DNA from: Acaryochloris marina S15 | Lineage (GTDB): Bacteria > Cyanobacteriota > Cyanobacteriia > Thermosynechococcales > Thermosynechococcaceae | Reading direction: 5' to 3' | Assembly: GCF_018336915.1 (NCBI RefSeq) | Contig: NZ_CP064927.1 | Location: 1 to 32,000 of the forward strand | DNA length: 32,000 bases | Part shown: piece by piece, positions 5,455 to 29,237 of the stretch | How positions within the stretch are numbered: position 1 is the first letter of the stretch | Layout of the letters: each line of letters opens with the position of its first letter | Program-made: the position numbers and the translations under genes | Notes under the pieces: model-generated | Database searches by the model: none | What the model was told of the DNA's origin: nothing | The model's input: only the letters and a program-made list of their open reading frames with translations

Positions 5455-5486
5455 ATTTGGCCTATCCATAGCAATCTGCCTATGTT
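5455..5486 (+). promoter_or_regulatory. Copy F of the conserved 32-nt promoter/operator motif, upstream of the relaxase gene
   Basis: ATTTGGCCTATCCATAGCAATCTGCCTATGTT reads as -35-like TTGGCC, an 18-nt spacer and -10-like TATGTT. It ends 32 nt before the ATG at 5519. It aligns without gaps to five minus-strand copies. Confidence 0.6.
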
Positions 5487-5518
5487 CTACTTGAGAGCTT
5501 CATTTCAGGAATAGAACA

Positions 5519-8500
5519 ATGCTAGATATCGTCACCATCCACTCAGGCATTGAAAACGGCGAGAGATATTACACCGAAGAAGAGAGCTACTACAGCGAGG
5601 ATGAAGAAATCCAGGCCATCACCAAATCAGAATGGTTTGGCAACATGGCACCCAATGAACCCTATTCAGCAGAGCGGTTCACTGAATTGTTCTATGGCAA
5701 TCTCCCTAATGGTCAGCGGATGCGAGGCGATGTCTTAGGAGATGGCAAAGAACGGTTAGGCTTTGACCTTACATTCGCTGTCCCTGGTAAATCTTTGAGT
5801 ATGCAGATCCATGCCCCTGAAGGTGACAAGCGACTATGGCAAGCTCACATCGAGGCAGTCAAAGAGGTTATGGCTATTGCAGAAGAACGCTATGCCGCTT
5901 CGAGGGTGCAAGTCAGTGGTGATCGGAAAGTCATTAAGACTGGGAATATTGCAGCCTGCCTGGTCAATCACCATGAGAGTCGAGCAGGAGATCCCCATGT
6001 CCACACCCATGTGGTCTTATTCAATGGAACTCACTGCCCTGATGGAGAACACCGGGCCTTATACAAGGAGCTGCTGAGTAAGAGTGGCATTTTAGGAGAT
6101 ATCTATCATCAAAAGCTGGCCCTCAAGGTTCAGGCTTTGGGATATGAGATAGAGGAAACCAGAGAAGGCTTTGAACTTGCAGGAACAACGACAGATCAAA
6201 GAGAGTTGTTCTCTAAACGCTCCACTGAAATTGATGACTACTTAAAAGCGAAGGGCTGGGACAAGACCCCTCAGAATCGACAGAGAGCCGTCTTTGAGAC
6301 TCGGATGGCGAAGGATAAAAGCCAAACCCTAGAAGACAAGCAGGACCGATGGGGCAATGAAATGGCATCGGTGGGCTTCCATGGCATCACCCCTGCCCAT
6401 CACCCGATCACACCCCAGAACCAAGAGACTCCTAGAGAATTGCTTGATGCTGCAATCGGCCATCTCTCTGAACGTCAGTCATCCTTTAGCCACGAAGACA
6501 TTCAGCGATTCGTCTTCTCCCACCTCCGCAGCTTTGATGAAGAACCATTGAACCAAGAGATTGATACCCACCCCGATCTATTAGATGCCTGGGACGGACG
6601 ATACACCACTCAAACTGCAGTGGATCGGGATATCCGCATTATTGACAACTGGCTCCAGGGCAATGACAGGGTTCAACCCCTCAACCCCAATGCTGACTTT
6701 AGCCATACCATCCTCAATAGTGGTCAGTCTGAAGCGATGCAGCGACTGCTCAGCTCACCAGATCAATACCAAATCCTCAAAGGACTCGCAGGCACAGGCA
6801 AGACTACTGCCATGGGTATCGCCCGAGAGCAGCTACCCCCTGAAACCGTGATCAAAGTCTTTGCAGCTACCCACAACGCCAAGAATGCCATTGCGGAATC
6901 CTTTGATCTTGAAGGGGCAACCATTGCTCAACTGGCTGTTTCCGAACCCACCACTGAAGCTAACCAGCTTTGGATTCTCGATGAATCAGGCATGGTCGGC
7001 TCTGAAGACTTTGAGATGGTGATGAATAAAGCAACCAAAGTGAATGCACGGGTCTGGGCTGTAGGAGATACCGGGCAGAATGGAGCCATTGCCGCAGGGG
7101 CACCCGTGCGAATGCTGATGCATAGCGGGGCAACGGTCCATAAACTCAGTGACATCATTCGCCAGCAGAACAAAGACCAGAAAACGGCAGTAAAACTGAT
7201 TGCTGAAGGACATGGCATTGAAGCGCTCAATGTCCTAGAGAAGCATGGTCACATCCATGAAGTTGAAGATGCAGATACTAAAATCTCTGGGGCAGTCAAT
7301 CACTACATGTCATTGCCCCAAAGCCGACGCGATAAAACCTTGGTGGTGATCGGGACCAATGTGGAGAGAGAAGACTTCACGGATCAACTCAGGGGCCAAC
7401 TGATTGAAGAAGGAAGCCTAACCCAGAATACGGAATTTACTCAGCTCAAGAACCGCAATCTCACGAAGGTGCAAAAGAAAAGAGCGGAGAACTACAACAA
7501 GGGTGATTTACTCGTCCTCCATCAGAAACACCGTACCTATACCCAACTGCAAACCCATGTCTCCTATAAAGTCCTGGCAGTGGAAGGTCAGCATTTGCGA
7601 GTGGAGTCACCAGGGGGCAGGAAGTTCAAAATCAATCCAGCTCAGCATAAAAGAACGGAGGTCTATACCGCTAGGAAGAATCATATTGCTGTAGGGGATA
7701 AACTCAGGTTTACCTCAACGAATAAGAAGGCTGGGATTTATACCAATGCCTATCTGGAATGTACGGATATCCAAGACGGCATCGCTACGGTTAGAGGCAA
7801 TAAGGACCAACTACATCAGCTTGATCTGAGTAAGGCTCTACAGATTGATCATGACTGGGCGACGACGACCTATCGGGCACAAGGGGGGACCAATTCAGAG
7901 ACGATCTATATTGCCAGTCTCAATCCCACTTCTGCTAAGGAGTCATTCTATGTGGGTATCTCACGGAATCGAACCAAGCATCTCTCTGTGTTTACAGAAT
8001 CCCTAGAGAAGCTGAAAGGATGGGTGGGCACGTCTAATGCTCAAGAGAATGCCATTGAAACTTTGTTCGATCCCCTGGAAGGTTGGAAGCCTGACTATGC
8101 GGGAGTAGAGAAGCCTTGGCAGATTGATGCCGATACCTGGACGGAGATGAAGGGCAGTGGTGTTCATCCCAGTCTCTTAACCCCAGAGCATCTGAGAAGT
8201 GAGGCGGGGAGTTCTGAGCCTTCAATTCGAGACAACGTGTTAGTGGAGGCTTTGCTGGGAGCTGAGTTTACTAAATCCAAGTATGGCGCAGGCCAAGAAG
8301 TGACCAAAGAGATGAAGCGAAAGCTCAATGGCACTCACAAGGTCAAGGGTAAGTGGATCAATGATCCTGAACGAGCCTATACCCGCATTGCGGAAGGGGG
8401 AGGGTGGATTGGCTATGGGGGGACCGATTTACTCTCTATTGTTGAGGGCAATCCTCAACCCTCTCTCTACTGCCAGGTAAAACCCAAGACACCTCGAATC

Positions 8501-9448
8501 TTTGATGGGAAAGAGAATAAGTATGAAACTCCCAAGGGGGTGGATCAGCAAGTGTTCTTGCCTCATATCCCAGATAAGATTGCCGAGAAGATTTATCGTC
8601 GCAATGCCATCAATCCCACTCCAGAGGAACGGGCGAAAGGGGTCTGGTTTGTAGCGGATCAATATAATCTGCCGATTGTGCTGACGGAGGGGTTGAAAAA
8701 GACTTGGGCATCCCTGAGTCAGGGACATCTGACGGTGGGATTACCCGGTGTCACGGCTTTGTATCGAGCCAAGGATGAATACGATAATCGATTGCCCCAG
8801 AGAGAGTTTACGGACTATGGCAAGGCATTGGCTAAGTCAGGGAGACAGATCACCTTTGCTTTTGACAAGGACACGAGGGTATCGAGCATTATGAATGTCA
8901 GACGTGATCTAGTCCGTACCCTTGAGTTTATGCAGGCTGCGGGGGTGGTCTGTAAGATTGCCCAATGGGAGCCAAAGCTAGGGAAGGGATTGGATGACCT
9001 GATCGTGAAGGCGGGTCCACGAGCTTACAATGTTGCGATTGCCAATGCGGTTCCCCCAGAGGCTGAAATCAAACGGCATTATCGAGGTCAGTACAATGAC
9101 ATTTCTAAGAGGGTGCAGAAACGATTAGGGGAGGTGCCCAAGGAGCGGGTTGACCTGGAGGTTTACGCCTACTGCAAGCAGTATGCAGAGCTGGATGATG
9201 CTCATCGGTTTATCTCTGAGTCAGATCATATGAGGGCTGCGACTCCAGAGCAGAAACGATTGTATTTGCTGGCGATTCACAAAGTCTCACCGATCTATGA
9301 GGATTTGATGAACTCGGATAAGCCGATCAACTTCAATCAGCGGATGCCTGAGATGGTGCAGAATCGGGTCAAGTTGCAGATTGTCAAAGAAAAGCCCACT
9401 CCATTGCAGAGTGAGCAAACTAATTACGATGTAAGCCAATCGTACTAG
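5519..9448 (+). CDS. MOBF (TrwC/TraI-type) conjugative relaxase fused to a RecD-like helicase and a C-terminal Toprim/DUF3854-like domain
   Basis: The relaxase N-terminus has a Tyr cluster (ERYYTEEESYYSED), DLTFAVPGKSLS and the His-triad motif HHESRAGDPHVHTHVVLFN. The helicase has Walker A GLAGTGKTT, Walker B ILDESGMV and TTYRAQGGT. The C-terminal part has LTEGLKKTW..GLPGVTALY...FAFDKDT...GKGLDDLI, an acidic E / DxD pattern typical of Toprim folds that resembles DUF3854. Confidence 0.9.
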   Translation: MLDIVTIHSGIENGERYYTEEESYYSEDEEIQAITKSEWFGNMAPNEPYSAERFTELFYGNLPNGQRMRGDVLGDGKERLGFDLTFAVPGKSLSMQIHAPEGDKRLWQAHIEAVKEVMAIAEERYAASRVQVSGDRKVIKTGNIAACLVNHHESRAGDPHVHTHVVLFNGTHCPDGEHRALYKELLSKSGILGDIYHQKLALKVQALGYEIEETREGFELAGTTTDQRELFSKRSTEIDDYLKAKGWDKTPQNRQRAVFETRMAKDKSQTLEDKQDRWGNEMASVGFHGITPAHHPITPQNQETPRELLDAAIGHLSERQSSFSHEDIQRFVFSHLRSFDEEPLNQEIDTHPDLLDAWDGRYTTQTAVDRDIRIIDNWLQGNDRVQPLNPNADFSHTILNSGQSEAMQRLLSSPDQYQILKGLAGTGKTTAMGIAREQLPPETVIKVFAATHNAKNAIAESFDLEGATIAQLAVSEPTTEANQLWILDESGMVGSEDFEMVMNKATKVNARVWAVGDTGQNGAIAAGAPVRMLMHSGATVHKLSDIIRQQNKDQKTAVKLIAEGHGIEALNVLEKHGHIHEVEDADTKISGAVNHYMSLPQSRRDKTLVVIGTNVEREDFTDQLRGQLIEEGSLTQNTEFTQLKNRNLTKVQKKRAENYNKGDLLVLHQKHRTYTQLQTHVSYKVLAVEGQHLRVESPGGRKFKINPAQHKRTEVYTARKNHIAVGDKLRFTSTNKKAGIYTNAYLECTDIQDGIATVRGNKDQLHQLDLSKALQIDHDWATTTYRAQGGTNSETIYIASLNPTSAKESFYVGISRNRTKHLSVFTESLEKLKGWVGTSNAQENAIETLFDPLEGWKPDYAGVEKPWQIDADTWTEMKGSGVHPSLLTPEHLRSEAGSSEPSIRDNVLVEALLGAEFTKSKYGAGQEVTKEMKRKLNGTHKVKGKWINDPERAYTRIAEGGGWIGYGGTDLLSIVEGNPQPSLYCQVKPKTPRIFDGKENKYETPKGVDQQVFLPHIPDKIAEKIYRRNAINPTPEERAKGVWFVADQYNLPIVLTEGLKKTWASLSQGHLTVGLPGVTALYRAKDEYDNRLPQREFTDYGKALAKSGRQITFAFDKDTRVSSIMNVRRDLVRTLEFMQAAGVVCKIAQWEPKLGKGLDDLIVKAGPRAYNVAIANAVPPEAEIKRHYRGQYNDISKRVQKRLGEVPKERVDLEVYAYCKQYAELDDAHRFISESDHMRAATPEQKRLYLLAIHKVSPIYEDLMNSDKPINFNQRMPEMVQNRVKLQIVKEKPTPLQSEQTNYDVSQSY

Positions 9449-9513
9449 AAGCGAGATGAAATCTCTAAAAATCTTTTGACATTAACTAGTAAAAAAACTG
9501 CAACTTATAAATC

Positions 9514-9810
9514 TTAGAATTTTTGCAAGCTATTCATCACGATCTGATATGCTTCCTGATTCCCTTGCTCTTTGTAAAGCTTTGCAGCAATACTAAAGTC
9601 TTTTTTAGCTGCAGAGATATTATTTAAATATTCATTCATTCTTACTCGATTAACAGCTGATTTATTAAGTTTCTGAACTCCCCTAAAAACAAGGAGCTAT
9701 AAGATAAGCTTAATCGAACTTATAGTCGCTCTAATTATTATCAGATAAAGGATATAGACGTTTTAAGATTTACTTTATAAATCAGCTCTTATATAAGCTT
9801 CGGGAACGTG
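9514..9810 (-). pseudogene. Decayed fragment of a TPR-protein gene (C-terminal repeats and capping helix), paralogous to the 3' end of the 357..2279 gene
   Basis: Minus-strand translation of 9514-9669 is VNRVRMNEYLNNISAAKKDFSIAAKLYKEQGNQEAYQIVMNSLQKF*. It aligns without gaps to the last 46 aa of the TPR protease, VNRGITHNRMGNKPQAKQDLKTAARLFQQQNNPEFYQKAMELLQSF*, with 15/31 identical over the last 31 aa. An in-frame TAG lies upstream at 9700-9702. A further degenerate piece, HVPEAYIRADL* (about 9781-9810), sits in another frame. Confidence 0.55.
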
Positions 9811-9947
9811 TTACCTTTTTGAGAGAATATTCAGGCTATGCTCAAACCCATTTATTTGGTAGTAGTTGAGGCTTGTCAAACTAGGGAATTTGTTTTCTTC
9901 CCAAAAACACACGTTCCTTAGATGTACTTTAAAAAGTATCAGTAAAT

Positions 9948-10364
9948 ATGAATCAATCACAAAAGTATTTATTTTTATTCTTTACAGGAATAACATATCC
10001 GTTTTTCGTAAATTATGGAACAGGCGCAATATTAGACTTATTACTTGCAGATCAAGCAAAAGAACCTGAAGTCATTTTCTTCCTTTGTATAGTGCTCATC
10101 TACTGCTTGAGTATATTTTTCGTTAACGCTTCATTCATAAAGCTTAATTCCTTTATTTTAGGGATTTCAGAAATGATGGGGATGATTCTACTATATCTTG
10201 TAGCATTCTCAGTCTCTGCTTCTCAGTCAAACTTAAGTCTATTAGAAGTTATTGGGTATGCTTTCGCAGATTTAGCAGCTGTTTTAGTCATGTTATTTAC
10301 AATATTTATTCCAGTTGTTCTAGGTGTAATTATACATATACGGCAATGGTTTGCTAATGCATGA
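9948..10364 (+). CDS. Hypothetical multi-pass membrane protein (about 4 TM helices) in an AT-rich island
   Basis: ATG start with four long hydrophobic segments. I recognise no motif. The AT-rich codon usage differs from the neighbouring transfer genes. Confidence 0.45.
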   Translation: MNQSQKYLFLFFTGITYPFFVNYGTGAILDLLLADQAKEPEVIFFLCIVLIYCLSIFFVNASFIKLNSFILGISEMMGMILLYLVAFSVSASQSNLSLLEVIGYAFADLAAVLVMLFTIFIPVVLGVIIHIRQWFANA

Positions 10365-10627
10365 CAAGGATATCAAACCTTAACTCAGAAGGACTTCTAA
10401 GAGATTTCAATTAAAAATATCTAGGATACTATATTGCCAAAAGCATCATGCATTTATCGCTCTTTAAGAGAGCATTATCTACATATACTAGAGAGTCTTT
10501 TTTGTTGATACCTAAAACTTTATTTATACATAAAAAAAGAATCATGGGAAAATATGAGCTGATTGAAAAAAACCCATAGCCCCACAGAACATTCACTACA
10601 ATTATCGAGAGATGTTGGATTGAGTGC

Positions 10628-10885
10628 TTACAACCGTTCTTTATATTGATTCGGCTGACACTCAACCACCATATCCATAACCTTGGGTATCGTGATGATG
10701 AACCGCTTAATTCCTATATCTAATCGGGCAATCGCCTCAGCTTCTTGCATTAAGATCTCTGGTTCACGCAGAAGATGACAGTGGATATAGACCGTCTTTT
10801 CGTCAGGCTCATATCGCAACTGGCTACCCTTGCACCACGCGAATTGGTGGCACAAATAGTCTGATAACACATGGAAATAATTCAT
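10628..10885 (-). CDS. Hypothetical 85-aa protein, downstream partner of the DUF1830-like gene
   Basis: ATG start 19 nt after the stop of the upstream gene, with balanced composition and several Cys/His (CHQFAWC, HCH). I recognise no family. Confidence 0.45.
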   Translation of the reverse strand: MNYFHVLSDYLCHQFAWCKGSQLRYEPDEKTVYIHCHLLREPEILMQEAEAIARLDIGIKRFIITIPKVMDMVVECQPNQYKERL

Positions 10886-10904
10886 TCAGTATTCCTCAGA
10901 CAAT

Positions 10905-11156
10905 TTAGGCTGCTTTAACAGTCAACTGCTTACACGGAATGCAGTCCCCTTGAATGGCTGTAGCTATCTCACTGGTATGGATCTCAAGAGAGGCTGCTTG
11001 AGGAGCATTGAACATTAGATGCTGTTGAGGAAACACCACTCGTTCAAAGTACCAGTTTGGAATATTGGTGATTCGCACCACCTGAACGTGAGGCGAGCGA
11101 TTACGGTAGCTGCAAAAGATGAATTCTATCTGTTGAGGCTCAAGGGTTTGAATCAT
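10905..11156 (-). CDS. DUF1830-like small protein (cyanobacteria-restricted family of unknown function)
   Basis: The segment RITNIPNWYFERVVFPQQHLMFNAPQAASLEIHT matches my recollection of the DUF1830 signature (..ItNIpnWYFERVVFPgqrLlFeA...a.LEIht). Confidence 0.55.
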   Translation of the reverse strand: MIQTLEPQQIEFIFCSYRNRSPHVQVVRITNIPNWYFERVVFPQQHLMFNAPQAASLEIHTSEIATAIQGDCIPCKQLTVKAA

Positions 11157-11833: not shown

Positions 11834-11837
11834 AGCA

Positions 11838-13871: not shown

Positions 13872-13903
13872 AACATAGGCAGAATGACCTGGGAGGGGCA
13901 AAT
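13872..13903 (-). promoter_or_regulatory. Copy A of the conserved 32-nt promoter/operator motif
   Basis: In the sense orientation it reads ATTTGCCCCTCCCAGGTCATTCTGCCTATGTT. It ends 29 nt upstream of the ATG at 13842. Confidence 0.6.
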
Positions 13904-17567: not shown

Positions 17568-17601
17568 ACAAAAATCCCGCTAGAGAGCTAGTTCTAACGG
17601 G

Positions 17602-17633
17602 AACATAGGCAGATTGTATGGTGGGGTGCAAAT
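17602..17633 (-). promoter_or_regulatory. Copy B of the conserved 32-nt promoter/operator motif
   Basis: In the sense orientation it reads ATTTGCACCCCACCATACAATCTGCCTATGTT. It ends 34 nt upstream of the ATG at 17567 and is immediately followed by the palindrome CCCGcTAGA-N8-TCTAaCGGG (17576-17601). Confidence 0.6.
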
Positions 17634-17691: not shown

Positions 17692-17955
17692 TTAGTAGTC
17701 TTGGAGAGTTGGTAGAAGGCCAGAAAGGTCTATGAAGACCAACTTACATAAATCTTGATCATTGGTGGTAACCAGTGTATCTGGCATCCCTTTGGGGATT
17801 TTGGTTTTAGACTTTGAGGCTGTAGTTGCATTAAAAACCAAAAACGCCAGCATTATCGCGCCCATGATCACAATGGTTTGGATAGACCAAAAAGACTGCC
17901 TGGGTTGCACAGGCTTAGGTGGGGGTGACGCTGGCTGTTCGATATGTTTTGACAT
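17692..17955 (-). CDS. Small 87-aa single-TM protein
   Basis: ATG start, a Pro-rich N-terminus and the TM segment IVIMGAIMLAFLVF. The post-TM motif KIPKGMPD resembles QIPEGMPN after the TM helix of the T4CP. Confidence 0.5.
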   Translation of the reverse strand: MSKHIEQPASPPPKPVQPRQSFWSIQTIVIMGAIMLAFLVFNATTASKSKTKIPKGMPDTLVTTNDQDLCKLVFIDLSGLLPTLQDY

Positions 17956-18419: not shown

Positions 18420-21400
18420 TTACCGTGGAACGTTGTAAGTCTTAAGGGCTGGGAGGTTGATATGCTTCCGAGGGTTGACGACGGTGCCAGAGTCGCGATC
18501 ACCGGTAACATATCCCTCAATCACGCCAAGGTCAATATGGGGGCCGGTGGATAATCCAGTGCTGCCCACTTCGCCAATGAGCTGCCCTGGACTCACCGTA
18601 TCACCTGCTTTTACGTAGTTGACTTTATTGTGAGCATACCAAGTCGCCAGCCCGTTGCCGTGGTCAATTAAGATCCAGTTTCCGTAATTACCATTATAAA
18701 AGCTCTCGACAACCGTCCCTCCGTCTGCAGCCGCGAAGGGTGTCCCGGCATAGTGGGCTAAGTCAATCCCACTGTGGAAGCTATTGCCCCCGTTCTTGGG
18801 GTGAATCCGTGGCCCATAATTACTGCTTAGGAGATAATCATGCTTGGCTAATGGGTCCGACAGCCGACCGGATGCAACGCCAGATCCAGGCACAAAATTA
18901 CTGCTGTCTATATTGCCTGCACTTGCCAACAACGCAGGATTACACCGCTGTGCATTCGTATTGATCGCAGCCAACAATGGGTTCTGCCCTGCATCCCCAT
19001 TCGGACCATATTGAGCCAAGATTGCCGGGTCTTTCCATATGTCATGCTGTTCAGCTCCCCCCGGCAGGCTCGTAAACTGGCCGTATTTGGTTTTCCCAGG
19101 AACGGGCCGACCTAGCAGTAGATCAGCGGTGGCAAAGTCACCAGCCTCAATCAGGCCCATGATATCGGTCCCTATTTGACCCGAGAAGTCCTGAATCAAG
19201 GCCACTGCCGCCTGATCGCGTTCGGCTTTATTCGTTGACCAGGCATCTACCCCATACCGATCCAATATCGTCTTTCGTGTCTCAGGAATAAACTGATATT
19301 CCCCATACGCTCCGGTATCAGGATGGGCGTCAATATCCGTCCCCCCCGACGATTCACCCAAGGCAATGCGGGCGAGATACTGTCTGAGATTATGTTGAGG
19401 ATCAGATGGGGTTGAAGCTGTGCTTCCTTGTTGGCTGCTCACAGCCCCTGGTTGACCCGGTATACCCGTCAATTGTGGGGCACCACTTGAGCCATCAATC
19501 GGTTGAAGGACGCCATTGGATGACGCAGTAGTACCTTGATTCTGACTCCCAGCCGCATTCGCAAAGGTCTGTTGCGCCTGACTGGTCCCTACAAACCGCC
19601 AGTGCCAAGGCTCAAATATAACGCCTTGGCTATTCCCCTGGGGAAATGACAACTCAAACCCGTACTTCCCGGCATTGGCTTGCATCCAGGCATATTCAGG
19701 TGTCTGTGCCCAAGACTCATTCAGGCTGGCATTCTGGTTGTTGCCTACATCCACCGCTAGACCCGTGTGGTGCTCACTATATCCAGGTGGAGCAACTGAC
19801 TTGGCAACTTCTTCAGCAGATTGGTTCGCCAACTTTCTATCCCAATTAGCCTGCTGATGAGACACGGATCGGAAGCCTGAGACTGCTTTAATATCTAATC
19901 CCTGAGCAGCCGCATCTGCTCTCAGTTGCTCAAAGGCTTGGGCGGCTTCTGGGGCTAGGGTTTCCTGAACGCCATCGACGGAGGTCACGTTTTGAAGCTG
20001 TCCGGTCGTCTCTGCATAGGCTAAGTGACCATAGAGAGATTGATTATCCGGTGGAGGACTACTCTTGGCTGCGGTATTCCCCCCTAAGAAGTCAGGGGCT
20101 TGGCAGAAGTTAATGGTTCTCGCTTTCTCGTTAATCCCTGGAAAGTAGTCTTGGACTTTACGCCGAGCCAGGATCGGGAAGATGCCCCCGACTTTGACTT
20201 TCCACGGGGTTTTGAAGCTGAAGATATGAGCGGTGCAGTGCTTCTCAAATAGGATGGTGACGCAGATCTGAAAGTCTACCCATAGCCGAGCTTCTGCGGG
20301 TTTATCATCGTATTCGGTGATATTTCCCAGGCTGAATTTGGTGAGGGAGCCATTGCCAAAGGGCTTAATGCCTGCTCGTTCCTTATTGCCAAACAGGCAG
20401 AGAAAGCCTTTGCATCCGGGGACTTCCTGATCTCGACTCATCCACTCTTTTCCCAGAAGTGGATCACCGAGAATGGTGGTCCCTGGTTCTAGGGGTGCCA
20501 TCTCAAACCGGGGAAACCCTCTTTTGGGTCGCTTGCTTCTGCTAGTGGCACTCTTGATGCCATGCTCTGGTTTGAATTTTCCGTCAGGGGTGCCGCCACT
20601 GATGGGTCTTCCATAATGTTCTTCTGCTCCATCTTGACCACTATGGGCGATATCGAACCGACCAAAGATATCCCCGGCAAGGATATTGAAGATGATCGGG
20701 GCGACGATGGAGCCAAGGGCGGTATCACCGAGGCCAGGGACGGAGCTTAGGATCTTGTCTTCTATGCCGGGGAATCGCTCTAGGGCCAGGTCTGCGAGTT
20801 GGGGTAAGGCTTGGTCTAAGGGCTGATTGGCAATATGGACGATGCCACCGATGGGCACTTGCTTGAGTTCGGGGAATTCTTTGATGACTTCGTTGAGGGT
20901 GAAGTTTTGGATTTCATCAATGGCATAGGCTTGGGCGCGTTGCCGTGCGGATTCCCAGTTGCCTTCGATGACTTCGATGGTGAGAGAGCCAACGGGTAAT
21001 CGGTGCAGCTCTGGGGGAAGGTCATTGCCAATCTCTCGAAGTAAGACTTGTTCGCCTTCTTTGATGGCCCCTTTCCAGTCGCCATCTAGGAGGTCTTCAA
21101 AGGGAATATCTTTGAGGGCGGGATTCTTGTTCAGTTCGTTGATCAGGACTTTCTTGCCTGTACTCAGGGCATTGCGTTGAAGCTGTTTCTGGGCACCTGT
21201 GGGGTCGAGGACGACTCCAACGACGGCTTGGAATAGGGGAGCGGAGTCTTTGAGTTTGATATCGCCGTTGTTGTAAATGTCTTTGACCTGTTCAAGGTTA
21301 AGGCCATTGACTAGTTCAATCTGGCTGATGGGCACTCCTCCGATATCAGTACCAATAGCATTGTTAAAGTCTCTAAGACTGTGTTTAGTGAAGCCTGCAA

Positions 21401-21722
21401 ACTGAGGGTTTTGCTTTAAGTCTCCAAATTTGATGATTTTGTCTGGGGTGGCTCCTGCGGGCCAAGCTCGGTTGGGATCATAGTTGAGGTTAGGGTCATC
21501 GACGACGACCCAACCGGGAGAGTTGGCACCGGGGAGATGGGAGAAGGAAACCCCTTGGGCTTCAGGGGGTGGATCGTAGATTAGCCCAGGAACGTTGGCG
21601 AGTTCTGGGGCGGGATAGTACCCGACTGGCTGGGCTTGACTCCAGACGGGAAGGGTCTGGGAGGCTGCGATCACGATGGAGGCGATGAGGGTAGGACATC
21701 GCTTGAGAACATTGAGGGTCAC
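18420..21722 (-). CDS. Secreted 1100-aa multi-domain peptidoglycan hydrolase: unknown N-terminal half, then a VanY/M15B D-Ala-D-Ala carboxypeptidase-like domain, a lysozyme/lytic-transglycosylase-like domain and an M23 peptidase domain
   Basis: GTG start at 21722 and signal-like N-terminus (LIASIVIAASQTLPVWSQA). M15B-type motifs are SGFRSVSHQ, PGYSEHHTGLAVDV and FEPWHWRF. The transglycosylase-like part is IALGESSGGTDI...GAYGEYQF. M23 motifs are HSGIDLA, GTVV, ILIDHGNG..T.YAH and GSTGLSTGPHIDLGV. Confidence 0.85.
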   Translation of the reverse strand: MTLNVLKRCPTLIASIVIAASQTLPVWSQAQPVGYYPAPELANVPGLIYDPPPEAQGVSFSHLPGANSPGWVVVDDPNLNYDPNRAWPAGATPDKIIKFGDLKQNPQFAGFTKHSLRDFNNAIGTDIGGVPISQIELVNGLNLEQVKDIYNNGDIKLKDSAPLFQAVVGVVLDPTGAQKQLQRNALSTGKKVLINELNKNPALKDIPFEDLLDGDWKGAIKEGEQVLLREIGNDLPPELHRLPVGSLTIEVIEGNWESARQRAQAYAIDEIQNFTLNEVIKEFPELKQVPIGGIVHIANQPLDQALPQLADLALERFPGIEDKILSSVPGLGDTALGSIVAPIIFNILAGDIFGRFDIAHSGQDGAEEHYGRPISGGTPDGKFKPEHGIKSATSRSKRPKRGFPRFEMAPLEPGTTILGDPLLGKEWMSRDQEVPGCKGFLCLFGNKERAGIKPFGNGSLTKFSLGNITEYDDKPAEARLWVDFQICVTILFEKHCTAHIFSFKTPWKVKVGGIFPILARRKVQDYFPGINEKARTINFCQAPDFLGGNTAAKSSPPPDNQSLYGHLAYAETTGQLQNVTSVDGVQETLAPEAAQAFEQLRADAAAQGLDIKAVSGFRSVSHQQANWDRKLANQSAEEVAKSVAPPGYSEHHTGLAVDVGNNQNASLNESWAQTPEYAWMQANAGKYGFELSFPQGNSQGVIFEPWHWRFVGTSQAQQTFANAAGSQNQGTTASSNGVLQPIDGSSGAPQLTGIPGQPGAVSSQQGSTASTPSDPQHNLRQYLARIALGESSGGTDIDAHPDTGAYGEYQFIPETRKTILDRYGVDAWSTNKAERDQAAVALIQDFSGQIGTDIMGLIEAGDFATADLLLGRPVPGKTKYGQFTSLPGGAEQHDIWKDPAILAQYGPNGDAGQNPLLAAINTNAQRCNPALLASAGNIDSSNFVPGSGVASGRLSDPLAKHDYLLSSNYGPRIHPKNGGNSFHSGIDLAHYAGTPFAAADGGTVVESFYNGNYGNWILIDHGNGLATWYAHNKVNYVKAGDTVSPGQLIGEVGSTGLSTGPHIDLGVIEGYVTGDRDSGTVVNPRKHINLPALKTYNVPR

Positions 21723-21809
21723 TAACAGAAATCCCCTGTAGATGGGCTACAGAGGAAACATAGGCAGGATGGCCTTTGAGGTGCAAATTTGTTGGTATAT
21801 CAGGGGTTG
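21718..21809. repeat. Left copy of a 92-bp direct repeat (promoter copy C, leader and GTG start of the hydrolase gene)
   Basis: A gapless by-eye alignment to 23673-23764 gives 82/92 identical. The offset is 1955 bp. Confidence 0.9.
21757..21788 (-). promoter_or_regulatory. Copy C of the conserved 32-nt promoter/operator motif
   Basis: In the sense orientation it reads ATTTGCACCTCAAAGGCCATCCTGCCTATGTT. It ends 34 nt upstream of the GTG at 21722 and is followed by the palindrome CCCCTGTAG-atggg-CTACAGAGG (21733-21755). Confidence 0.6.
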
Positions 21810-22970: not shown

Positions 22971-23005
22971 AATAAAATCCCTCCCATGTCATATGTTGGG
23001 AGGGA
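22971..23005 (-). terminator. Intrinsic terminator specific to the minus strand, inside the M23/SUKH divergent intergenic region
   Basis: The 9-bp stem is TCCCTCCCA (22978-22986) / TGGGAGGGA (22997-23005) with a 10-nt loop. In the minus-strand RNA the stem is followed by UUUUAUU (plus-strand aataaaa, 22971-22977). The plus strand has no T tail. Confidence 0.6.
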
Positions 23006-23131
23006 GAAGAATGCATAATCTTAGAATAAGTCGAAGAGTAGACAAACTCTTTAGTTTAGGCCGGTCAACTCACTAGCGCCAATACAACCTCACTACCAAA
23101 CCGCCATTACTGCGTTACGTTCCTATTGATC

Positions 23132-23671: not shown

Positions 23672-23672
23672 T

Positions 23673-23764
23673 GTCACAAACAAGAATCCTCTGTAGATGG
23701 GCTACTAAGGAAACATAGGAAGAATGGCCTGTGAGGTGCAAATTTGTTGGTAAATCAGGGGTTG
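23673..23764. repeat. Right copy of the 92-bp direct repeat (orphan promoter copy D, leader and retained GTG)
   Basis: See 21718-21809. It begins 2 nt after the TGA stop (23669-23671) of the SUKH-like gene. Confidence 0.9.
23712..23743 (-). promoter_or_regulatory. Copy D of the conserved motif, an orphan with no downstream same-strand gene that points antisense into the SUKH-like gene
   Basis: In the sense orientation it reads ATTTGCACCTCACAGGCCATTCTTCCTATGTT. No minus-strand ORF of 60 aa or more lies between it and the terminator at 22971-23005. Confidence 0.5.
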
Positions 23765-24197
23765 GGGCTGTTGTTTACATAGCTTAAAATGTTACTTTGC
23801 CAATCGGATTGATTGACAAGCACTTTACCTCTTTCAGAAGTCATTATTTACTTCCCCTCCTAGAAATTTGATTCGCTTTGCGTAAAAGAAAGGTATGAAG
23901 CCGATAAATCTCTAGGAATAAATAATTTTTGCCCAGATTACCAGTGACAAGAGCAATACCCCTTATAAGGCCAAGCTGACAAGGAAAATCTAGGGATAGA
24001 TGCGTGTATTTAGAAGATGAATCGATTGAGATATCTTCAATACGTTGATGAAAACCAGATTTTAAGCCTGAGGGGAAATTTGCCCATCATCTTAACCGCT
24101 CCCCATAGGGGTTCCAAACAACCCAATCTGGCCCCTGAGCAAAGTGATGTCAAGTCCATTAATCAATTTATTGTTCTCTAGCTAATGAGGAATCACG

Positions 24198-25130
24198 ATG
24201 GCAAAGAGTATTGAAGGCATATCTGGTCAGATCTGGGATGATTATTATGAAAAATTTGAAGCTTACTTCAGCCGTGATTTAGTGAGGGATGGCTGTCATC
24301 CCTTGATCTTTGAGCAAGTTGAACCCACCGATAAAGCGATTGTGTTGGTTCATGGATTGTCTGACTCTCCCTATTTTATGAGCGCGATTGGGGAGTATTT
24401 CTATCAAAAACTGGGGTACAACGTCTACTTGCCGCTTCTGCATTTTCATGGTTTGAAGGATCCCAAAGAGATGGAAGGAGTAGAGCTAGAAGAGTGGAAA
24501 GCGAACGTTAGATTTGCCATCAATGTGGCCGAAGACAATGCCGAGAAAGTTTCCATCGGAGGCTTATCGACGGGTGGTGCCCTGGGCTTTTATATGGCAG
24601 CAACTAGCCCAAGGATTGACGGCGCACTATACCTATTTTCTGCAGCACTTGATCTGGCGGGTGGTCGGCTTGGACTTATAGGTGAAGTAAAAGAACGTGT
24701 ACTGAGAACCTTTTGGCCTGATCTACTGAAACCTATTCTGAATAGAAATGCCCCTCCCTTAGTTGGAGACAATCCCTATGGATATAGCCATGTTGATCTA
24801 GATGGGGCTCAAGAACTCGCGAGGCTGATTAAGGAAACCGATATTCTACTGAAGGGATTTAGTCATAAAGCACGGTTTGCAAAGCGGGTCTTTGCTGCCC
24901 ACTCCGAGTCTGACACTACGGCTAGCTTAGAAGGGATTAGAGAGCTACAATCTGTGTCAGATCCGACTCTATTCCACCCCTATATCTTTCACAAGGATCT
25001 AGAAATTTCCCATGCTAGCCTTGTCCTCGAAGATACTATTGCGAATAATGAGGGGCAGATCATAAAGGACGCAAATCCCCAATTTGCCGAGATGATGACA
25101 GAAATTAAGCAGTTCCAAGATGGAAATTGA
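24198..25130 (+). CDS. Alpha/beta-hydrolase-fold esterase/lipase (carboxylesterase or monoacylglycerol-lipase-like)
   Basis: VLVHGLSDSPYFM is an oxyanion-region-like strand-loop, and the nucleophile elbow is GGLSTGG. Candidate catalytic Asp is in HSESD and His in EISHASL. There is no signal peptide. Confidence 0.75.
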   Translation: MAKSIEGISGQIWDDYYEKFEAYFSRDLVRDGCHPLIFEQVEPTDKAIVLVHGLSDSPYFMSAIGEYFYQKLGYNVYLPLLHFHGLKDPKEMEGVELEEWKANVRFAINVAEDNAEKVSIGGLSTGGALGFYMAATSPRIDGALYLFSAALDLAGGRLGLIGEVKERVLRTFWPDLLKPILNRNAPPLVGDNPYGYSHVDLDGAQELARLIKETDILLKGFSHKARFAKRVFAAHSESDTTASLEGIRELQSVSDPTLFHPYIFHKDLEISHASLVLEDTIANNEGQIIKDANPQFAEMMTEIKQFQDGN

Positions 25131-25520
25131 GTCGAAGTACTGAACCGAGAATTTTTGTCGTAGAGTAATCGATTAAGCGGTTTGTGGCATGAACTAGCTC
25201 TGATAGTGCTTGGACATAGAGGGTTTATTCAGGACGAATTGGCGCAATTGACTCCGATTTAGGCTTAGGCTGACTACCCAAGCAGTGAGCTTACAAGTCG
25301 CTTTAGCTTGCATCACATCCGTCAGGGGTGAGATTACGCTATCCATTTTGAGAAGTTGCATATTTTTTTTGCGAATAAGTGATGTCTAGTAGGACAGTCT
25401 GTGGATTCATCAAATCCTGCACAGATAATTTCGAGCTAATCCTTTTAGACTTGCAATATCTGAGGCATGGACTTTCTACTAAATGTTCATTAAAAGACTA
25501 ATTCAAGCAAGGAAATCAAT

Positions 25521-26354
25521 ATGTCGAAAGAGCTAGGATTGATTGCAATTCACGGAATGGGGGATACACCTATTGATTTCTCAGATGAGCTAGAACAAAT
25601 ATTAAGCCAACAAGTTGGTGGAGAACTTTGGAAAAAAATTCACTTTGAATCAGTATATTATCAGGGAATTCTTCAAAATAATGAACGGCGCGTCTGGAAT
25701 AACATGCAACTGTTATCTACTGAAAAACTTCGGTGGTCTTTACTGAGGAAGTTCATGCTATTTGGACTCGCAGATGCCTCCAGCCTAGAGCATAAAGCTG
25801 ATGCAGATAATAGTGTTTATAAACAAACTCAAAAAATTATTGCAGAAAGCTTACGTAAAACAAAAAGTCAATTAATTGATAAAGACCGTCCTGTAATTGT
25901 AATTGCTCAATCACTGGGTGGGCAGGTAATTTCTAACTACATTTGGGATTCCCAAACTGGAGGAAATGGTATTTGGAAGAATGGTACACCAGATTCACTA
26001 AATCCTAGTGCTGATGAAAAAGAGTTTCTGCAATTGAAAACGATGAGATCTCTCTATACAACAGGATGTAATATCCCCCTATTTGTAGCTGGATTTGATA
26101 AAATTTCAGCGTTTAATGGAGCAGTGATGCATCCTCAATTCCAATGGAAAAATTATTATGATCGAGATGATGTTCTAGGTTGGCCTCTCCAACCTTTATC
26201 TAATGACTATGACAAGCTAGTAAAAGATATAGAGATTAATGCTGGAAATATTGTTTCAGCTTTCACCCCATTCAGTCACAATGAATATTGGAGTGACCCT
26301 GATTTTACTAAGCCATTATCTCAAGAAATAGTAGGCATACTCAACAATCCTTAA
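25521..26354 (+). CDS. Second, unrelated alpha/beta-hydrolase-like (lipase-like) protein
   Basis: LIAIHGMGDT, the nucleophile elbow IAQSLGGQV, candidate Asp in YYDRDDVLGWP and candidate His in PFSHNEYW. There is no signal peptide. The gene is AT-rich. Confidence 0.55.
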   Translation: MSKELGLIAIHGMGDTPIDFSDELEQILSQQVGGELWKKIHFESVYYQGILQNNERRVWNNMQLLSTEKLRWSLLRKFMLFGLADASSLEHKADADNSVYKQTQKIIAESLRKTKSQLIDKDRPVIVIAQSLGGQVISNYIWDSQTGGNGIWKNGTPDSLNPSADEKEFLQLKTMRSLYTTGCNIPLFVAGFDKISAFNGAVMHPQFQWKNYYDRDDVLGWPLQPLSNDYDKLVKDIEINAGNIVSAFTPFSHNEYWSDPDFTKPLSQEIVGILNNP

Positions 26355-26499
26355 AATTCCGCATCATTAGGTATCTAACAAATTAAGGCACGAATATAAA
26401 AATACTGTCGCTAGTAGATTTGAAGATAGATTTGGTTTCTATCTCATGTAAATTTTTTAGTGTACGGTTTTTATTCAATTTGTGTCAGTCTGTTCAATC

Positions 26500-26542
26500 A
26501 CGATGAAGACAGTAATATGTTCTATAGAACTGTCTTCATCGT
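26500..26542. repeat. 14-bp perfect inverted repeat between convergent genes
   Basis: ACGATGAAGACAGT (26500-26513) / ACTGTCTTCATCGT (26529-26542) with a 15-nt spacer. The palindrome TTCTATAGAA (26520-26529) overlaps the junction of spacer and right arm. Neither side has a clear U-rich tail. Confidence 0.7.
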
Positions 26543-26595
26543 AATTCTTGGAATTTAGCTGTTGAATAATCAAGTAGAATGCAAAATTGATGAAA

Positions 26596-27981
26596 TCAGC
26601 CAATCGGCACAATCTCAACCTCACCATCAAACCGCCAGTACTGGGTGATCTCTTGCCCGCCTCGCTGTCGTTGGGGATTGGATACAAGCCGGGAAATGTG
26701 ATTCCCTCCCCGCACATCCGCTAACTGGTCCGTGGCGATCTCTCCCCCAATTGCAGCCACTGTCCCCATCACTCTATCCCCGAAAGATTCTCCTCCCTGG
26801 CGCTTCAGTTGCGCTCTCAGGTACTTAGTATTCTTGCGTCTGACCTCCATCGTCCCTGGCTCAATCTCTTGACCATTGATACTGACCACATGAGCCGTGA
26901 ACTGCAAGCCATTCATCTTTTGAATCTTGGCCTCAGCCATCTGACCTTTATGAGGTCCACTGGTGATTTTCAAAGGAATGACCACCTGTTGAGCCTCTTG
27001 AGGGGATAACCATTCCACATGATCAATTACCTTGGCCTTCATGGAGGTCCGGGTCGGTGGTGCTGCACCCTGGCCTGAACCATAGAACTCAGACTCAAAC
27101 TGATCCACCGTTTGAATCTCACCCGCCATAAAGTTGACCTGATAGTCAGGCTTTACTTTTGTCTGAGGTTTAGCTTTACTCCTATTGGCAAAGGCTAGCT
27201 TGACGGGTTTAGCCTGGGGCCGAGGGGTATAGGTGGGACGGGTGACTTTCGGGATTTTGCCTATCGAGGATGTTTGGGAGGATGACTGAGGCTTTTGACT
27301 GATCTGATAGCGGTTACAGCCTGGAACGTTCATACTCCGCTCCACATAGCCCACACATTCATTCAAGGAGGGGCCGCTAGGCTTAGACTTGGCAAGCAAG
27401 GAAGGGCTGGGCTTTGCTGGAGTATAGGTGCGTTTTGGAGTCGAGTTGCCATAGAGCCGACGAGGAACCCTGACGGTATTTTTTGGCTGGACGGGCTTAC
27501 CCCCTACCTGCAAGGGTTTTTTCTGTCCAGCCTGCTGGGCTTTCAGGGCTTTCTGCTTTTGGGCCTGCTGCTTGAGCCGCTTTTGTCGTTGATCAAACGG
27601 CTCTAAGTCTGCGGCTTGAGTTAATCCCATGTTGTCTTGGGCAAGCTGGGCTTTCTCCAGTTCAGACTGCTGAAGCTTTTCCGTCAGGCTGATAATCTGC
27701 TTATCCTTATCTCCCAAGGCCATCACCACCTGGGGCTTCGGTCCCCATAGCTTATAGCCCACGAACCCAGTGATAAGCAGAGGGACGGCGATGAAACCAA
27801 TCCTAAACCAGGGCTGCAGATAGTAGGGATGTTTGACCTTATCCCCTGGATCCACCATTTTCTCTAGATCGTTGATGGGACGACCCTCAGCCACCTTGTT
27901 CTCTTCTAAGAGTTCATTGAGTTCCGGGTCTTCCAACAATGTGGCTTTGGCTTCCTCGACCTGGCGTTTATCTGTCGGCAT
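26596..27981 (-). CDS. Bitopic transfer protein with VirB10/TrbI-like architecture (short cytoplasmic N-terminus, one TM, coiled coil, Pro/Lys-rich linker, C-terminal beta-rich domain)
   Basis: The TM segment is FRIGFIAVPLLITGFVGYKLW and the coiled coil is LTEKLQQSELEKAQLAQ. The long linker is K/P/Q-rich (KPVQPKNTVRVP...TPRPQAKPVKL). The C-terminal domain is about 190 aa. The assignment rests on architecture only; I recognise no diagnostic motif. Confidence 0.45.
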   Translation of the reverse strand: MPTDKRQVEEAKATLLEDPELNELLEENKVAEGRPINDLEKMVDPGDKVKHPYYLQPWFRIGFIAVPLLITGFVGYKLWGPKPQVVMALGDKDKQIISLTEKLQQSELEKAQLAQDNMGLTQAADLEPFDQRQKRLKQQAQKQKALKAQQAGQKKPLQVGGKPVQPKNTVRVPRRLYGNSTPKRTYTPAKPSPSLLAKSKPSGPSLNECVGYVERSMNVPGCNRYQISQKPQSSSQTSSIGKIPKVTRPTYTPRPQAKPVKLAFANRSKAKPQTKVKPDYQVNFMAGEIQTVDQFESEFYGSGQGAAPPTRTSMKAKVIDHVEWLSPQEAQQVVIPLKITSGPHKGQMAEAKIQKMNGLQFTAHVVSINGQEIEPGTMEVRRKNTKYLRAQLKRQGGESFGDRVMGTVAAIGGEIATDQLADVRGGNHISRLVSNPQRQRGGQEITQYWRFDGEVEIVPIG

Positions 27982-28014
27982 GTCTCGCTCCTTGTCTCTG
28001 TTCTCTGGGTTGTT

Positions 28015-28692
28015 CTAGGTGGGCAGGTCCACAATGTTGGTAATCAATAGCTCTGCATGGAGGGCATCATCAATCATGCGGCCCAGCTCTGTATCGGCAA
28101 TTTGCCAGTTGGGTCTAAAACCTTGGACGGCTCTCAAGGTCAAGATTTTGTTGATTTTAACGGGGTTATAGATCAGGTTGTTTTGACCATCAAAGCGGTA
28201 TTGGGTGGCGTATAGTCTGATATCCCATTCATGGGCTTCTGGATCTATGCGCTCAATCTTGGCTCCCGTGAGGGTGGTCTTTGTATGGTGGGATTTGCCC
28301 ACATAGTTGGTGAAGGGGTCTTTGGCTTTGGCATAGGCGATGTGCTGACGCCCCAACCACTCGGCCCGGATATCAGGATGGATCTTGAAGGCTTGGGTAT
28401 ACATGGGCAGGGGATAGATCACCTTGCCTTCACGGTGGCCTTCACCATTCATGGGCCAGGTATAGGCGACGGAGACAAATTCTTGGGCAAATCTCAGGAC
28501 CACATCATCACTGCGATAGAAGGGATCTACGGGCTGACCTTTGACGACTAACCCGGAGTCAGTCTGGATATACACCTGAGAGGGGGCTTGGGCTCTGGCT
28601 CCTTGGGTAAACCAGGAGAAGCACACGAGGATATTCAGCAAGAGAGCTGAAACTACCAGGAGGGGAAGGAATCGAGAGAGTTTCTTAGTCAT
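28015..28692 (-). CDS. Periplasmic or membrane-anchored 225-aa transfer protein (VirB8-like size and topology, unverified)
   Basis: The N-terminal hydrophobic segment ends in ARAQA and is followed by a soluble domain of about 190 aa. The gene is tightly packed in the operon, 6 nt after the upstream stop. Confidence 0.4.
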   Translation of the reverse strand: MTKKLSRFLPLLVVSALLLNILVCFSWFTQGARAQAPSQVYIQTDSGLVVKGQPVDPFYRSDDVVLRFAQEFVSVAYTWPMNGEGHREGKVIYPLPMYTQAFKIHPDIRAEWLGRQHIAYAKAKDPFTNYVGKSHHTKTTLTGAKIERIDPEAHEWDIRLYATQYRFDGQNNLIYNPVKINKILTLRAVQGFRPNWQIADTELGRMIDDALHAELLITNIVDLPT

Positions 28693-28698
28693 TGGCAG

Positions 28699-29175
28699 TT
28701 ACCACTCGTCGTAGATCGAATAATCAAACTCGGAATAAATATCGTCCAGGTCTCTCGTGCTTCTTCCATCACCTCCAGAGGTCGTTACCCCCAGTAGGAA
28801 TTGCACCAATAGAAAGAACAGGGTCAATCCCGACAGGAAGAACCAGACAAAGATGAAATGGTCAAAGGTCCAGCAGAAGGCGAAATAGAACAGCACGGTC
28901 ATCCCATAGATAAATCGGAAGTCTGACCACCAAAAGCGAAAGTCGGGGACAAAGAGCTGGCAAAATATGAGTCCACAGCCCAAGGTGAAAAAGGAGTCCA
29001 ACCCGGATAGCTGCTCTGCCCCAGCAAAGATGCGGTGGTAGCCTGCAAACAGGGTGAGGACGATGCAGGCCATTACCCCAGATAAGGGAGTCAGATCGGC
29101 AAAGCCCCCGTTGAGAGTGATCAACATCAGGGCAAAGACGATAAAGATAACGGCGATGGTTTGGTACAAGGGCAT
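28699..29175 (-). CDS. Polytopic 158-aa inner-membrane protein, first gene after promoter copy E
   Basis: It has four or more hydrophobic helices and an acidic C-terminal tail (DLDDIYSEFDYSIYDEW). AAGGGAG lies upstream of the ATG at 29175. Confidence 0.6.
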   Translation of the reverse strand: MPLYQTIAVIFIVFALMLITLNGGFADLTPLSGVMACIVLTLFAGYHRIFAGAEQLSGLDSFFTLGCGLIFCQLFVPDFRFWWSDFRFIYGMTVLFYFAFCWTFDHFIFVWFFLSGLTLFFLLVQFLLGVTTSGGDGRSTRDLDDIYSEFDYSIYDEW

Positions 29176-29205
29176 GATTTTCTCCCTTTAATCTTGGTTG
29201 TAATG

Positions 29206-29237
29206 AACATAGGCAAGATGGCTTTTGAGATGCAAAT
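29206..29237 (-). promoter_or_regulatory. Copy E of the conserved 32-nt promoter/operator motif
   Basis: In the sense orientation it reads ATTTGCATCTCAAAAGCCATCTTGCCTATGTT. It ends 30 nt upstream of the ATG at 29175 and lies in the 66-bp gap after the stop at 29242. Confidence 0.6.

Follow-up and report, generated by a model that had tools for sequence, protein, structure and literature searches.

A 32-nucleotide promoter-like motif recurs ahead of transfer and partition operons of Acaryochloris plasmids and co-occurs with a plasmid sigma factor gene

Gene blocks and motif copies in the window

The stretch of DNA analyzed here, referred to as the window, comprises the first 32,000 nucleotides (nt) of contig NZ_CP064927.1 of Acaryochloris marina S15. 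It belongs to an Acaryochloris plasmid, and its nearest relatives in PLSDB are pMB06 (93% identity), pREB7, pREB8 and pREC4. The element under study is a 32-nt motif that stands ahead of blocks of conjugative transfer genes. Pfam searches of the window genes identified a TrwC relaxase with AAA_30 helicase and DUF3854 domains, a type IV coupling protein (T4CP) of the TraG/VirD4 type, a protein with VanY and M23 peptidase domains, and further LRV and M23 proteins. The 507-amino-acid (aa) and 158-aa proteins had no Pfam family match. No DNA-binding domain was found by domain search in the open reading frames (ORFs) of the window, where small ORFs without a family remain.

The window was searched with the pattern ATTTG-N19-CCTATGTT, allowing at most one mismatch. 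Six gapless sites were returned, P1 to P6 (Table 1), each with no mismatch, against 0.06 sites expected from shuffles; none of 100 shuffles reached six. These are the same six copies, at the same places, that had been listed in an earlier note made from the sequence of this DNA. A repeat search recovered the motif family independently (families D2 and I3). Position weight matrix (PWM) scores of the six copies are 33-49; the best score in a mononucleotide-shuffled window is usually under 9.

For five of the copies, 29-34 nt separate the end of the motif from the first start codon of a block on the same strand, which agrees with the spacing given earlier. P1 is located in a 142-nt intergenic region between divergent genes and, given this arrangement, a promoter must be present there; orthologous copies stand ahead of the relaxase gene in pMB06, pREB7 and pREC4. 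The gene headed by P4 is followed by 123-aa and 87-aa ORFs, and the 158-aa ORF headed by P6 is followed by 225-aa and 461-aa ORFs. The earlier note had the motif heading every transfer block, and this holds for these five copies and not for the sixth. P5 is an orphan, contained in a 92-nt duplicate that is 89% identical to the P4 region (repeat search, family D4).

The same note had described the cargo genes as free of the motif. A PWM scan of the window showed no seventh copy at a score of at least 14, and the cargo genes therefore lack it, with the exception of one decayed relic with indels ahead of a 277-aa ORF. This relic consists of CTTGCA, an over-long spacer, TAAATGTT and a leader that is 72% like the P6 leader. 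It is possibly a degenerate seventh copy.

Table 1. Positions of motif copies, stem-loops, relics and candidate sigma genes in the window and in records of related plasmids.
Feature	Record	Position	Strand	Context
P1	window	5455-5486	+	Ends 32 nt before ATG of TrwC/MOBF relaxase gene (5519-9448)
P2	window	13872-13903	-	Ends 29 nt before ATG of 507-aa ORF (13842-12319), then 88-aa ORF
P3	window	17602-17633	-	Ends 34 nt before ATG of T4CP gene (17567-15750), then 145-aa ORF
P4	window	21757-21788	-	Ends 34 nt before GTG of 1100-aa VanY + M23 peptidoglycan hydrolase gene (21722-18420)
P5	window	23712-23743	-	Orphan copy; then GTG, 14 codons and stop, then antisense to 181-aa ORF
P6	window	29206-29237	-	Starts 4 nt after stop of 492-aa ORF; ends 30 nt before ATG of 158-aa ORF (29175-28699)
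Decayed P6-type promoter and leader	window	25450-25520 (promoter relic 25450-25487)	+	Ahead of 277-aa cargo ORF (25521-26354); below PWM score 14
Stem-loop at P1	window	5483-5518	+	5' arm includes TGTT of -10; 3' arm over AGGA ribosome-binding site, ends just before relaxase ATG
Stem-loop at P3	window	17575-17602	-	10-bp, from last T of TATGTT; 3' arm with GGGA, then TTTTTGT; terminator-like; z -3.71
Stem-loop at P4	window	21732-21756	-	10-bp, from 1 nt past TATGTT; 3' arm with AGGGGA ribosome-binding site, then TTTCTGTT; terminator-like; z -2.46
Promoter + 5' gene stub duplicate (contains P5)	window	23673-23764		Duplicate of P4 region (21718-21809)
Promoter + 5' gene stub duplicate	window	17692-17955		87-aa ORF
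Promoter + 5' gene stub duplicate	L004	20589-20620
Promoter + 5' gene stub duplicate	pREB8 (L002)	18576-18607
Promoter + 5' gene stub duplicate	L003	29419-29450
Sigma-1 gene	pREB8 (L002)	30452-31723		Present in other plasmids besides those listed
Sigma-1 gene	L003	45220-46491
Sigma-1 gene	L052	12001-13356
Sigma-1 leader	pREB8 (L002)	~30240-30450		Seven other plasmids: alignment columns ~890-1085
Second sigma-like gene	pMB04 (L054)	30127-31833		Heads type IV secretion system operon
Second sigma-like gene	pMB08 (L053)	30371-32071		Heads type IV secretion system operon
Near-chance half-motif match	pMB04 (L054)	41003-41034	+
Near-chance half-motif match	L051	32043-32074	+
Near-chance half-motif match	L004	45552-45583	+
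Near-chance half-motif match	L050	37251-37282	+
492-aa ORF	window	29242-30720	-
370-aa ORF	window	30545-31657	-
Nine tandem 102-nt repeats	window	1106-2221	+	Inside 703-aa trypsin-like peptidase/TPR protein gene

Two other features of the window are recorded here. As listed, the 492-aa and 370-aa ORFs have 176 nt in common, and the public gene call on a matching contig uses a later start for the downstream gene (419 aa); the overlap is probably an artefact of picking the first possible start codon. The tandem 102-nt repeats near the left end encode TPR units of 34 aa and have no relation to the motif.

Promoter-like anatomy and adjacent hairpins

An alignment of 45 distinct sites from ten loci, anchored on the motif and free of gaps, showed that conservation is confined to the 32 positions. 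The information content is 41.5 bits over positions 1-32, compared to a mean of 0.15 bits for each of the 30 positions before the motif and 0.33 for each of the 40 after it. Invariant or nearly invariant positions are A1, T2-T4, G5, C9, C18, A19, T23, C25, C26, T27, A28 and T29-T32, and spacer positions 13-17 are free to vary. T27, A28 and T32 are invariant over all 45 sites, with changes at 29-31 occurring in decayed copies; the last-hexamer variants of partly decayed copies (TACCCT, TATCCT, TACGTT and TATCTT) all fit TAnnnT. The T, the A and the final T are the positions of most weight in a sigma-70-family -10 element. Every copy is oriented toward its downstream gene, and at 36 of the 45 sites a same-strand ORF of at least 45 codons starts 12-39 nt downstream.

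All six window copies share one layout, TTGCAC, 18 bp and TATGTT, that is, a TTG-type -35 and a TAnnnT -10. The motif thus reads as a -35 TTGCAC, an 18-bp spacer and an extended -10, CTGCC-TATGTT. With TATGTT numbered -12 to -7, (AT)TTGCAC would lie at -36 to -31, CA at -21/-20, and T-16, G-15, C-14 and C-13 would make up the extended -10. RNA polymerase holoenzyme contacts promoters through sigma region 4 at the -35, at the spacer, and through sigma region 3.0 at the extended -10. The conserved positions of the motif span -38 to -7 and occupy these contact places. Its sharp edges, its orientation, the TAnnnT variants and the divergent gap at P1 together make a strong case, and the motif, taken on its own, is very probably a promoter. 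The promoter assignment of the earlier note is borne out by all available sequence-level and comparative tests. Transcription would start about 7 nt downstream of TATGTT, giving leaders of 21-27 nt.

Several other identities were considered for the motif and rejected. An alternative -10 at CAWYYT (positions 18-23) would put the start at the base of the hairpin described below; ATTTGCAC then lies 9 bp upstream, and there is no conservation at the would-be -35. Likeness to a promoter for a T7-like single-subunit RNA polymerase is limited to CTCAC, with no TATA-like melting region in the motif and no such polymerase among the ORFs examined. Sites for sigma-54, NtcA, LexA and RpaB (HLR1), compared by eye with the motif consensus, misfit in spacing and sequence. 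A dyad or direct-repeat operator was rejected because the motif consensus has neither symmetry; its best dyad, 6 of 12 complementary pairs, is at chance level. A known RNA family was also rejected, as an Rfam search of the window gave no match.

Stem-loops abut P1, P3 and P4 (Table 1). Their stems begin either 0-1 nt past TATGTT or 2-3 nt within the hexamer, and their 3' arms hold the Shine-Dalgarno-like sequences AGGA, GGGA and AGGGGA. The P1 hairpin has a predicted energy of -12.9 kcal/mol (z -3.38; 0 of 200 shuffles), and the P3 and P4 stems are the top two terminator-like matches in the region. The P4 hairpin is conserved in pMB06, pREB7, pREB8 and pREC4, and the 9-pair stem at the T4CP promoter P3 shows compensatory changes at two pairs across six plasmid copies. 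If transcription starts about 7 nt past the -10, native transcripts would lack the 5' arm, and only read-through from upstream could fold the hairpin. The hairpins would then terminate or translationally silence such read-through and keep each block on its own promoter. We infer this insulating role from the position of the stems relative to the assumed start site, on which it depends.

Motif plasmids and a candidate reader

A genome-wide scan had been proposed as a refutation check. We ran it with the exact pattern ATTTGB-N11-CAHYHTD-CCTATGTT on one genome per species (185,579 species), and the matches were not randomly scattered. Of 45 stretches in total, 16 came from Acaryochloris. In A. 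marina MBIC11017 the exact copies were found on four plasmids only, pREB7 (six), pREB8 (four), pREB2 (one) and pREB5 (one), and this exact-pattern scan gave no match on the chromosome record of that strain among the listed records; the other Acaryochloris matches were contigs of metagenome-assembled genomes. Multiple copies occurred only on pREB7 and pREB8. About 29 singletons in unrelated taxa, most with low matrix scores, compare with about 44 matches estimated by chance. A blastn search of PLSDB with a 45-nt motif copy as query likewise matched nine of 72,556 plasmids, all from Acaryochloris. These nine are identical to the nine PLSDB plasmids with a full-length homolog of sigma-1, the name given here to a plasmid-encoded sigma-70-family protein. 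Both the motif and sigma-1 are absent from four further Acaryochloris plasmids whose T4CP is distant (24-29% identity). The plasmids of the motif family share the CyRepA1 rep gene, a MOBF relaxase and one type IV secretion system (T4SS) lineage.

In pMB06, pREB7, pREB8 and pREC4 the motif is found at positions orthologous to those in the window. Upstream flanks have fully diverged between orthologous promoters while the motif is kept, even where the orthologous proteins of two plasmids share no more than 38-57% identity. In these four relatives it also heads two operons of the parM region, and a further block that begins with a 287-aa secreted protein gene and contains a VirB4-like ATPase gene. 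Its presence ahead of the parM and VirB4 blocks indicates that the regulon is the plasmid backbone, transfer plus partition, and not transfer alone. The DNA-processing and mating-pore regulon proposed in the earlier note is therefore supported for the transfer genes and too narrow, as the parM partition operons belong to it in the relatives.

The plasmids fall into two architectures. In type B (pREB2, pREB5, pMB04 and pMB08) the T4SS genes form one unbroken operon, headed by one or two tandem motif copies with a short ORF after each, and then by a second sigma-like gene; the pMB04 operon has two head copies only. In type A (the window, pMB06, pREB7, pREB8 and pREC4) the blocks are split by cargo (LRV, M23 and hydrolase genes) and a motif copy heads each, with orthologs of P2 in all four type A relatives. 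The window gene order is collinear with the uninterrupted pMB04 operon. Duplicates made up of a promoter and a 5' gene stub lie at cargo junctions (Table 1) and occur in pREB7, pREB8 and pREC4 as well as in the window, where an 87-aa ORF shares 76% identity with the N-terminal part of the coupling protein of the pMB04 type. Decayed copies are also present, with PWM scores of 18-31, and several motif-bearing plasmids co-reside in one strain.

The stub relics suggest that plasmids residing in the same strain have recombined at the motif or close to it. Considered together with the collinearity, the stubs point to propagation of the promoter as a means of holding the pieces of what was formerly one operon under common control. 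A long ancestral T4SS operon of the window lineage would have been broken by cargo, with a motif copy restarting transcription of each block, and all of the split blocks would thereby still answer to one factor.

Sigma-1 is the best candidate for that factor among the proteins examined. A sigma-70-family gene is annotated beside the transfer region in pREB7, pREB8 and pREC4. In eight of the eight relatives examined, sigma-1 immediately precedes the CyRepA1 rep gene and is transcribed away from a small gene on its other side, at a position about 8-15 kb past the right end of the window, and it is the sole recognized regulatory protein seen in all eight. The family is small, with about 20 clusters among 5.8 billion proteins, and every named one is from Acaryochloris. 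The product of the small divergent gene is an HTH_26 (Cro/C1-type) protein in five plasmids and an RHH_5 (CopG-like) protein in two; in the remaining one it is 50 aa long and unassigned. As this small regulator varies while the motif stays the same, it is unlikely to read the 32-mer.

Sigma-1 is about 423 aa long and has Pfam sigma regions 2, 3 and 4 without region 1; it scores below the cut-off of every NCBIfam sigma family. Its best PDB matches, over residues 20-250, are SigF and primary sigma factors. The roles in promoter recognition of residues in regions 2.3/2.4 and 4.2 are well established. Region 4.2 of sigma-1 reads GERIRQL, as in primary sigma factors, and is compatible with a -35 of the TTG type. 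The WW pair found in primary sigma factors is missing from region 2.3/2.4, YAVKPIRTEIRQ; this region is SigF-like, which is compatible with the non-standard upstream edge of the -10. The sigma domains are followed by a conserved tail of about 170 aa with one hydrophobic stretch at residues ~360-384 (Kyte-Doolittle 19-residue mean 2.0-2.1) and an invariant C-terminal HPRPPN. In the AlphaFold model the sigma domains are confident, and the tail has a predicted local distance difference test score below 50 except for a helix at 366-387. On hydropathy and this low-confidence model of the tail, sigma-1 is predicted to be a membrane-anchored sigma factor.

The leader of the sigma-1 gene, about 200 nt long in pREB8 and seven other plasmids, contains two tandem copies of CTCTAACCGC...AAACAACCAGAGRG and an AACCTTA...AAGGTT stem just before the start codon. 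These elements may constitute a regulatory RNA leader or a protein-binding repeat beside the replication gene. A scan with half of the motif (positions 18-32) gave only marginal matches ahead of sigma-1 in pREC4 and pREB5, with chance-level scores. Near-chance matches of this kind (Table 1) include TGCCTATCAT ahead of the small HTH/RHH gene and CATTCTGCCTAGATT about 200 nt ahead of sigma-1. With scores so close to chance, they could at most hint at feedback within the sigma-1 module.

Second sigma-like proteins are encoded in type B. Those of pMB04 and pMB08 (566-568 aa) are fused through a hydrophobic segment to a domain that is 33% identical to the 287-aa signal-peptide protein heading the corresponding block of type A. 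pREB5 and pREB2 have unfused second sigma-like genes at the same place.

Candidate readers of the motif and known systems

Together, these findings favor the 32-nt motif as the common promoter of an Acaryochloris-specific plasmid backbone regulon read by sigma-1 holoenzyme, a reading to which we assign a probability of roughly 0.55. The reader would most likely be RNA polymerase carrying the plasmid-encoded sigma-1. An element-encoded regulator or a dedicated sigma factor had been anticipated in the earlier note, and this idea has gained a concrete candidate on exactly the nine motif plasmids, one that is located outside the window.

A number of points weigh against this reading. Sigma-1 lies beyond the window, and as a look-up of contigs encoding the right-most ORF gave only one of 9.5 kb, its presence on the same replicon is presumed. 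Two sigma-1 clades have different region 2.4 sequences and an identical motif; co-variation of the motif with the clades was considered and rejected on this ground. The co-occurrence of motif and sigma-1 amounts to a single evolutionary association, since the rep gene and the T4SS lineage are likewise common to all nine plasmids. In type B a second sigma-like gene stands immediately after the motif, so that different lineages could have different readers. Host sigma factors of group 1 or group 2 could also recognize a TTG at -35 with a TAnnnT at -10. Among the window copies, P1, P3 and P4 have strong hairpins, P2 and P5 have weak ones (z about -1) and P6 has none, and hairpins occur in only about half of the promoter families; that at P1 is present despite the divergent upstream gene and is left unexplained by insulation. 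Literature searches turned up no paper that describes the motif, maps transcription starts on Acaryochloris plasmids or deals with conjugation under sigma control in cyanobacteria.

The main alternative is a host primary or group 2 sigma factor that uses TTGCAC-18-TATGTT, with a plasmid-encoded repressor or activator reading A1/T2, CA at -21/-20 and TGCC at -16 to -13 and so co-regulating the operons, in the manner of KorA/KorB, ArdK/StbA or AcaCD on plasmids of proteobacteria. The hexamers conform to the general sigma-70-family layout, the motif is unchanged between sigma-1 clades that differ in region 2.4, many small backbone ORFs of no assigned function could bind DNA, and Par proteins are global regulators in other plasmid families, as is KorB of IncP. 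However, the motif lacks the dyad or direct-repeat symmetry typical of most dimeric operators, and its conserved positions are spread over -38 to -7 at places of holoenzyme contact. The recognizable small regulators differ in fold (HTH_26 or RHH_5) among plasmids with the same motif. The motif also matches the housekeeping consensus TTGACA/TATAAT at only 7 of 12 positions, so that none of the six window copies is called by a consensus scan (which needs 9 of 12), yet it never drifts toward that consensus. We consider this alternative somewhat unlikely.

An ordinary promoter cassette that has been propagated without any dedicated factor, owing its invariance to young copies or to recombination between co-resident plasmids, would account for the promoter and stub duplicates at cargo junctions (the 92-nt P5/P4 pair, the 87-aa ORF, and those of pREB7, pREB8 and pREC4) and accords with the presence of several motif plasmids in one strain. 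It is a poor fit to the pattern of conservation, which stops exactly at the motif edges, with flanks and positions 13-17 varying freely, and which persists at 38-57% protein identity where the orthologous upstream flanks are wholly diverged. The decay products, with scores of 18-31, indicate turnover, with the intact copies under selection. This explanation is improbable. An RNA-level or single-stranded DNA element (a site for RNA processing or stability, a piece of an intercistronic terminator, or a signal that acts after transfer in priming or as a single-strand promoter) is suggested by the very short intercistronic gaps that hold some copies, such as P6, and by the terminator-like hairpins abutting the motif, and is very improbable given that P1 has no co-directional upstream transcript and needs a promoter, that the motif strand tracks gene direction (one +, five -) and not one transferred strand, that the window has no Rfam match, and that conservation resides in the unstructured 32-mer while the adjacent hairpins vary in sequence.

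If sigma-1 does read the motif, the two may form a private, membrane-gated circuit. The C-terminal helix would hold sigma-1 until an envelope or mating cue frees or activates it, and all backbone promoters would then fire together. The fused sigma of pMB04 and pMB08, with a periplasmic domain homologous to the first protein of the T4SS operon, would in this case couple the state of the secretion apparatus to transcription. This extension is speculative, and we regard it as unlikely.

To our knowledge, the control of transfer by conjugative plasmids of cyanobacteria has hardly been described. The findings offer a testable logic, in which one 32-bp promoter and a candidate plasmid sigma serve a regulon of relaxase, coupling protein, cell-wall hydrolase, mating-pore blocks and partition genes. 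This logic, if true, would place control by a sigma factor beside the repressors and activators known to regulate conjugation, account for the coordination that transfer operons retain once cargo has divided them, and provide an orthogonal promoter/sigma pair for cyanobacterial engineering. The scope is narrow, a single genus, and we infer all that goes beyond the sequence pattern.

Recurrence of one short site in the promoters of many backbone operons (transfer, DNA processing and partition) is also seen for KorA/KorB of IncP-1, the repressor network of IncW R388 and the AcaCD/SetCD boxes of IncA/C and SXT. The sites of those systems are palindromic or are activator boxes beside or overlapping ordinary promoters, whereas the repeated unit here is the asymmetric promoter itself, from -38 to -7. 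The analogy drawn in the earlier note to the operators of IncP fails structurally, as the motif has no dyad symmetry. No homologs of KorA, KorB or AcaCD were seen, and the associated factor here is a sigma factor.

Putative mobile promoters are homologous promoter segments upstream of non-homologous genes. The motif resembles them in that the same segment lies ahead of unrelated genes in one replicon and bears signs of spread by duplication; it differs in that its copies are confined to one functional module, hold to a strict consensus although the plasmids have diverged deeply, and go together with a dedicated sigma gene. The hairpins recall the fold-back inhibition that protects IS10 and IS50 against outside transcription, where an inverted repeat has its 5' arm at or upstream of the native start (assumed here) and its 3' arm over the ribosome-binding site, an arrangement that P1, P3 and P4 fit. 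They differ in being at transfer operon promoters and not at a transposase gene, and some also resemble intrinsic terminators.

Promoters of group 3 sigma factors, such as TAAA-N15-GCCGATAA for sigma-28 and CTTGAAA-N13-14-CCCCATnT for sigma-32, likewise combine a -35 with conserved C-rich bases just upstream of the -10 core, and sigma-1 is similar to their sigma factors in lacking region 1 and the WW pair. The consensus here is a different one, with an 18-bp spacer, and sigma-1 falls below all NCBIfam sigma cut-offs. The phage sigma factors T4 gp55 and SPO1 gp28/gp34 have their own promoter consensus and drive late genes. SigN of the Bacillus subtilis plasmid pBS32 is a mobile-element sigma with its own promoter consensus and drives DNA-damage-induced cell death (PMC6751061). 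As in these systems, an element-encoded sigma-70-family protein accompanies near-identical promoters that are found on the element only. Here, in contrast, the regulon is conjugative transfer and partition on cyanobacterial plasmids, and sigma-1 has a long tail with a predicted membrane helix, its role at the promoters being putative. By analogy, the system appears to resemble the backbone regulons of IncP, IncW, IncA/C and SXT in function but not, structurally, to be an operator network, and its nearest mechanistic precedents would be the mobile-element sigma factors with private promoters.

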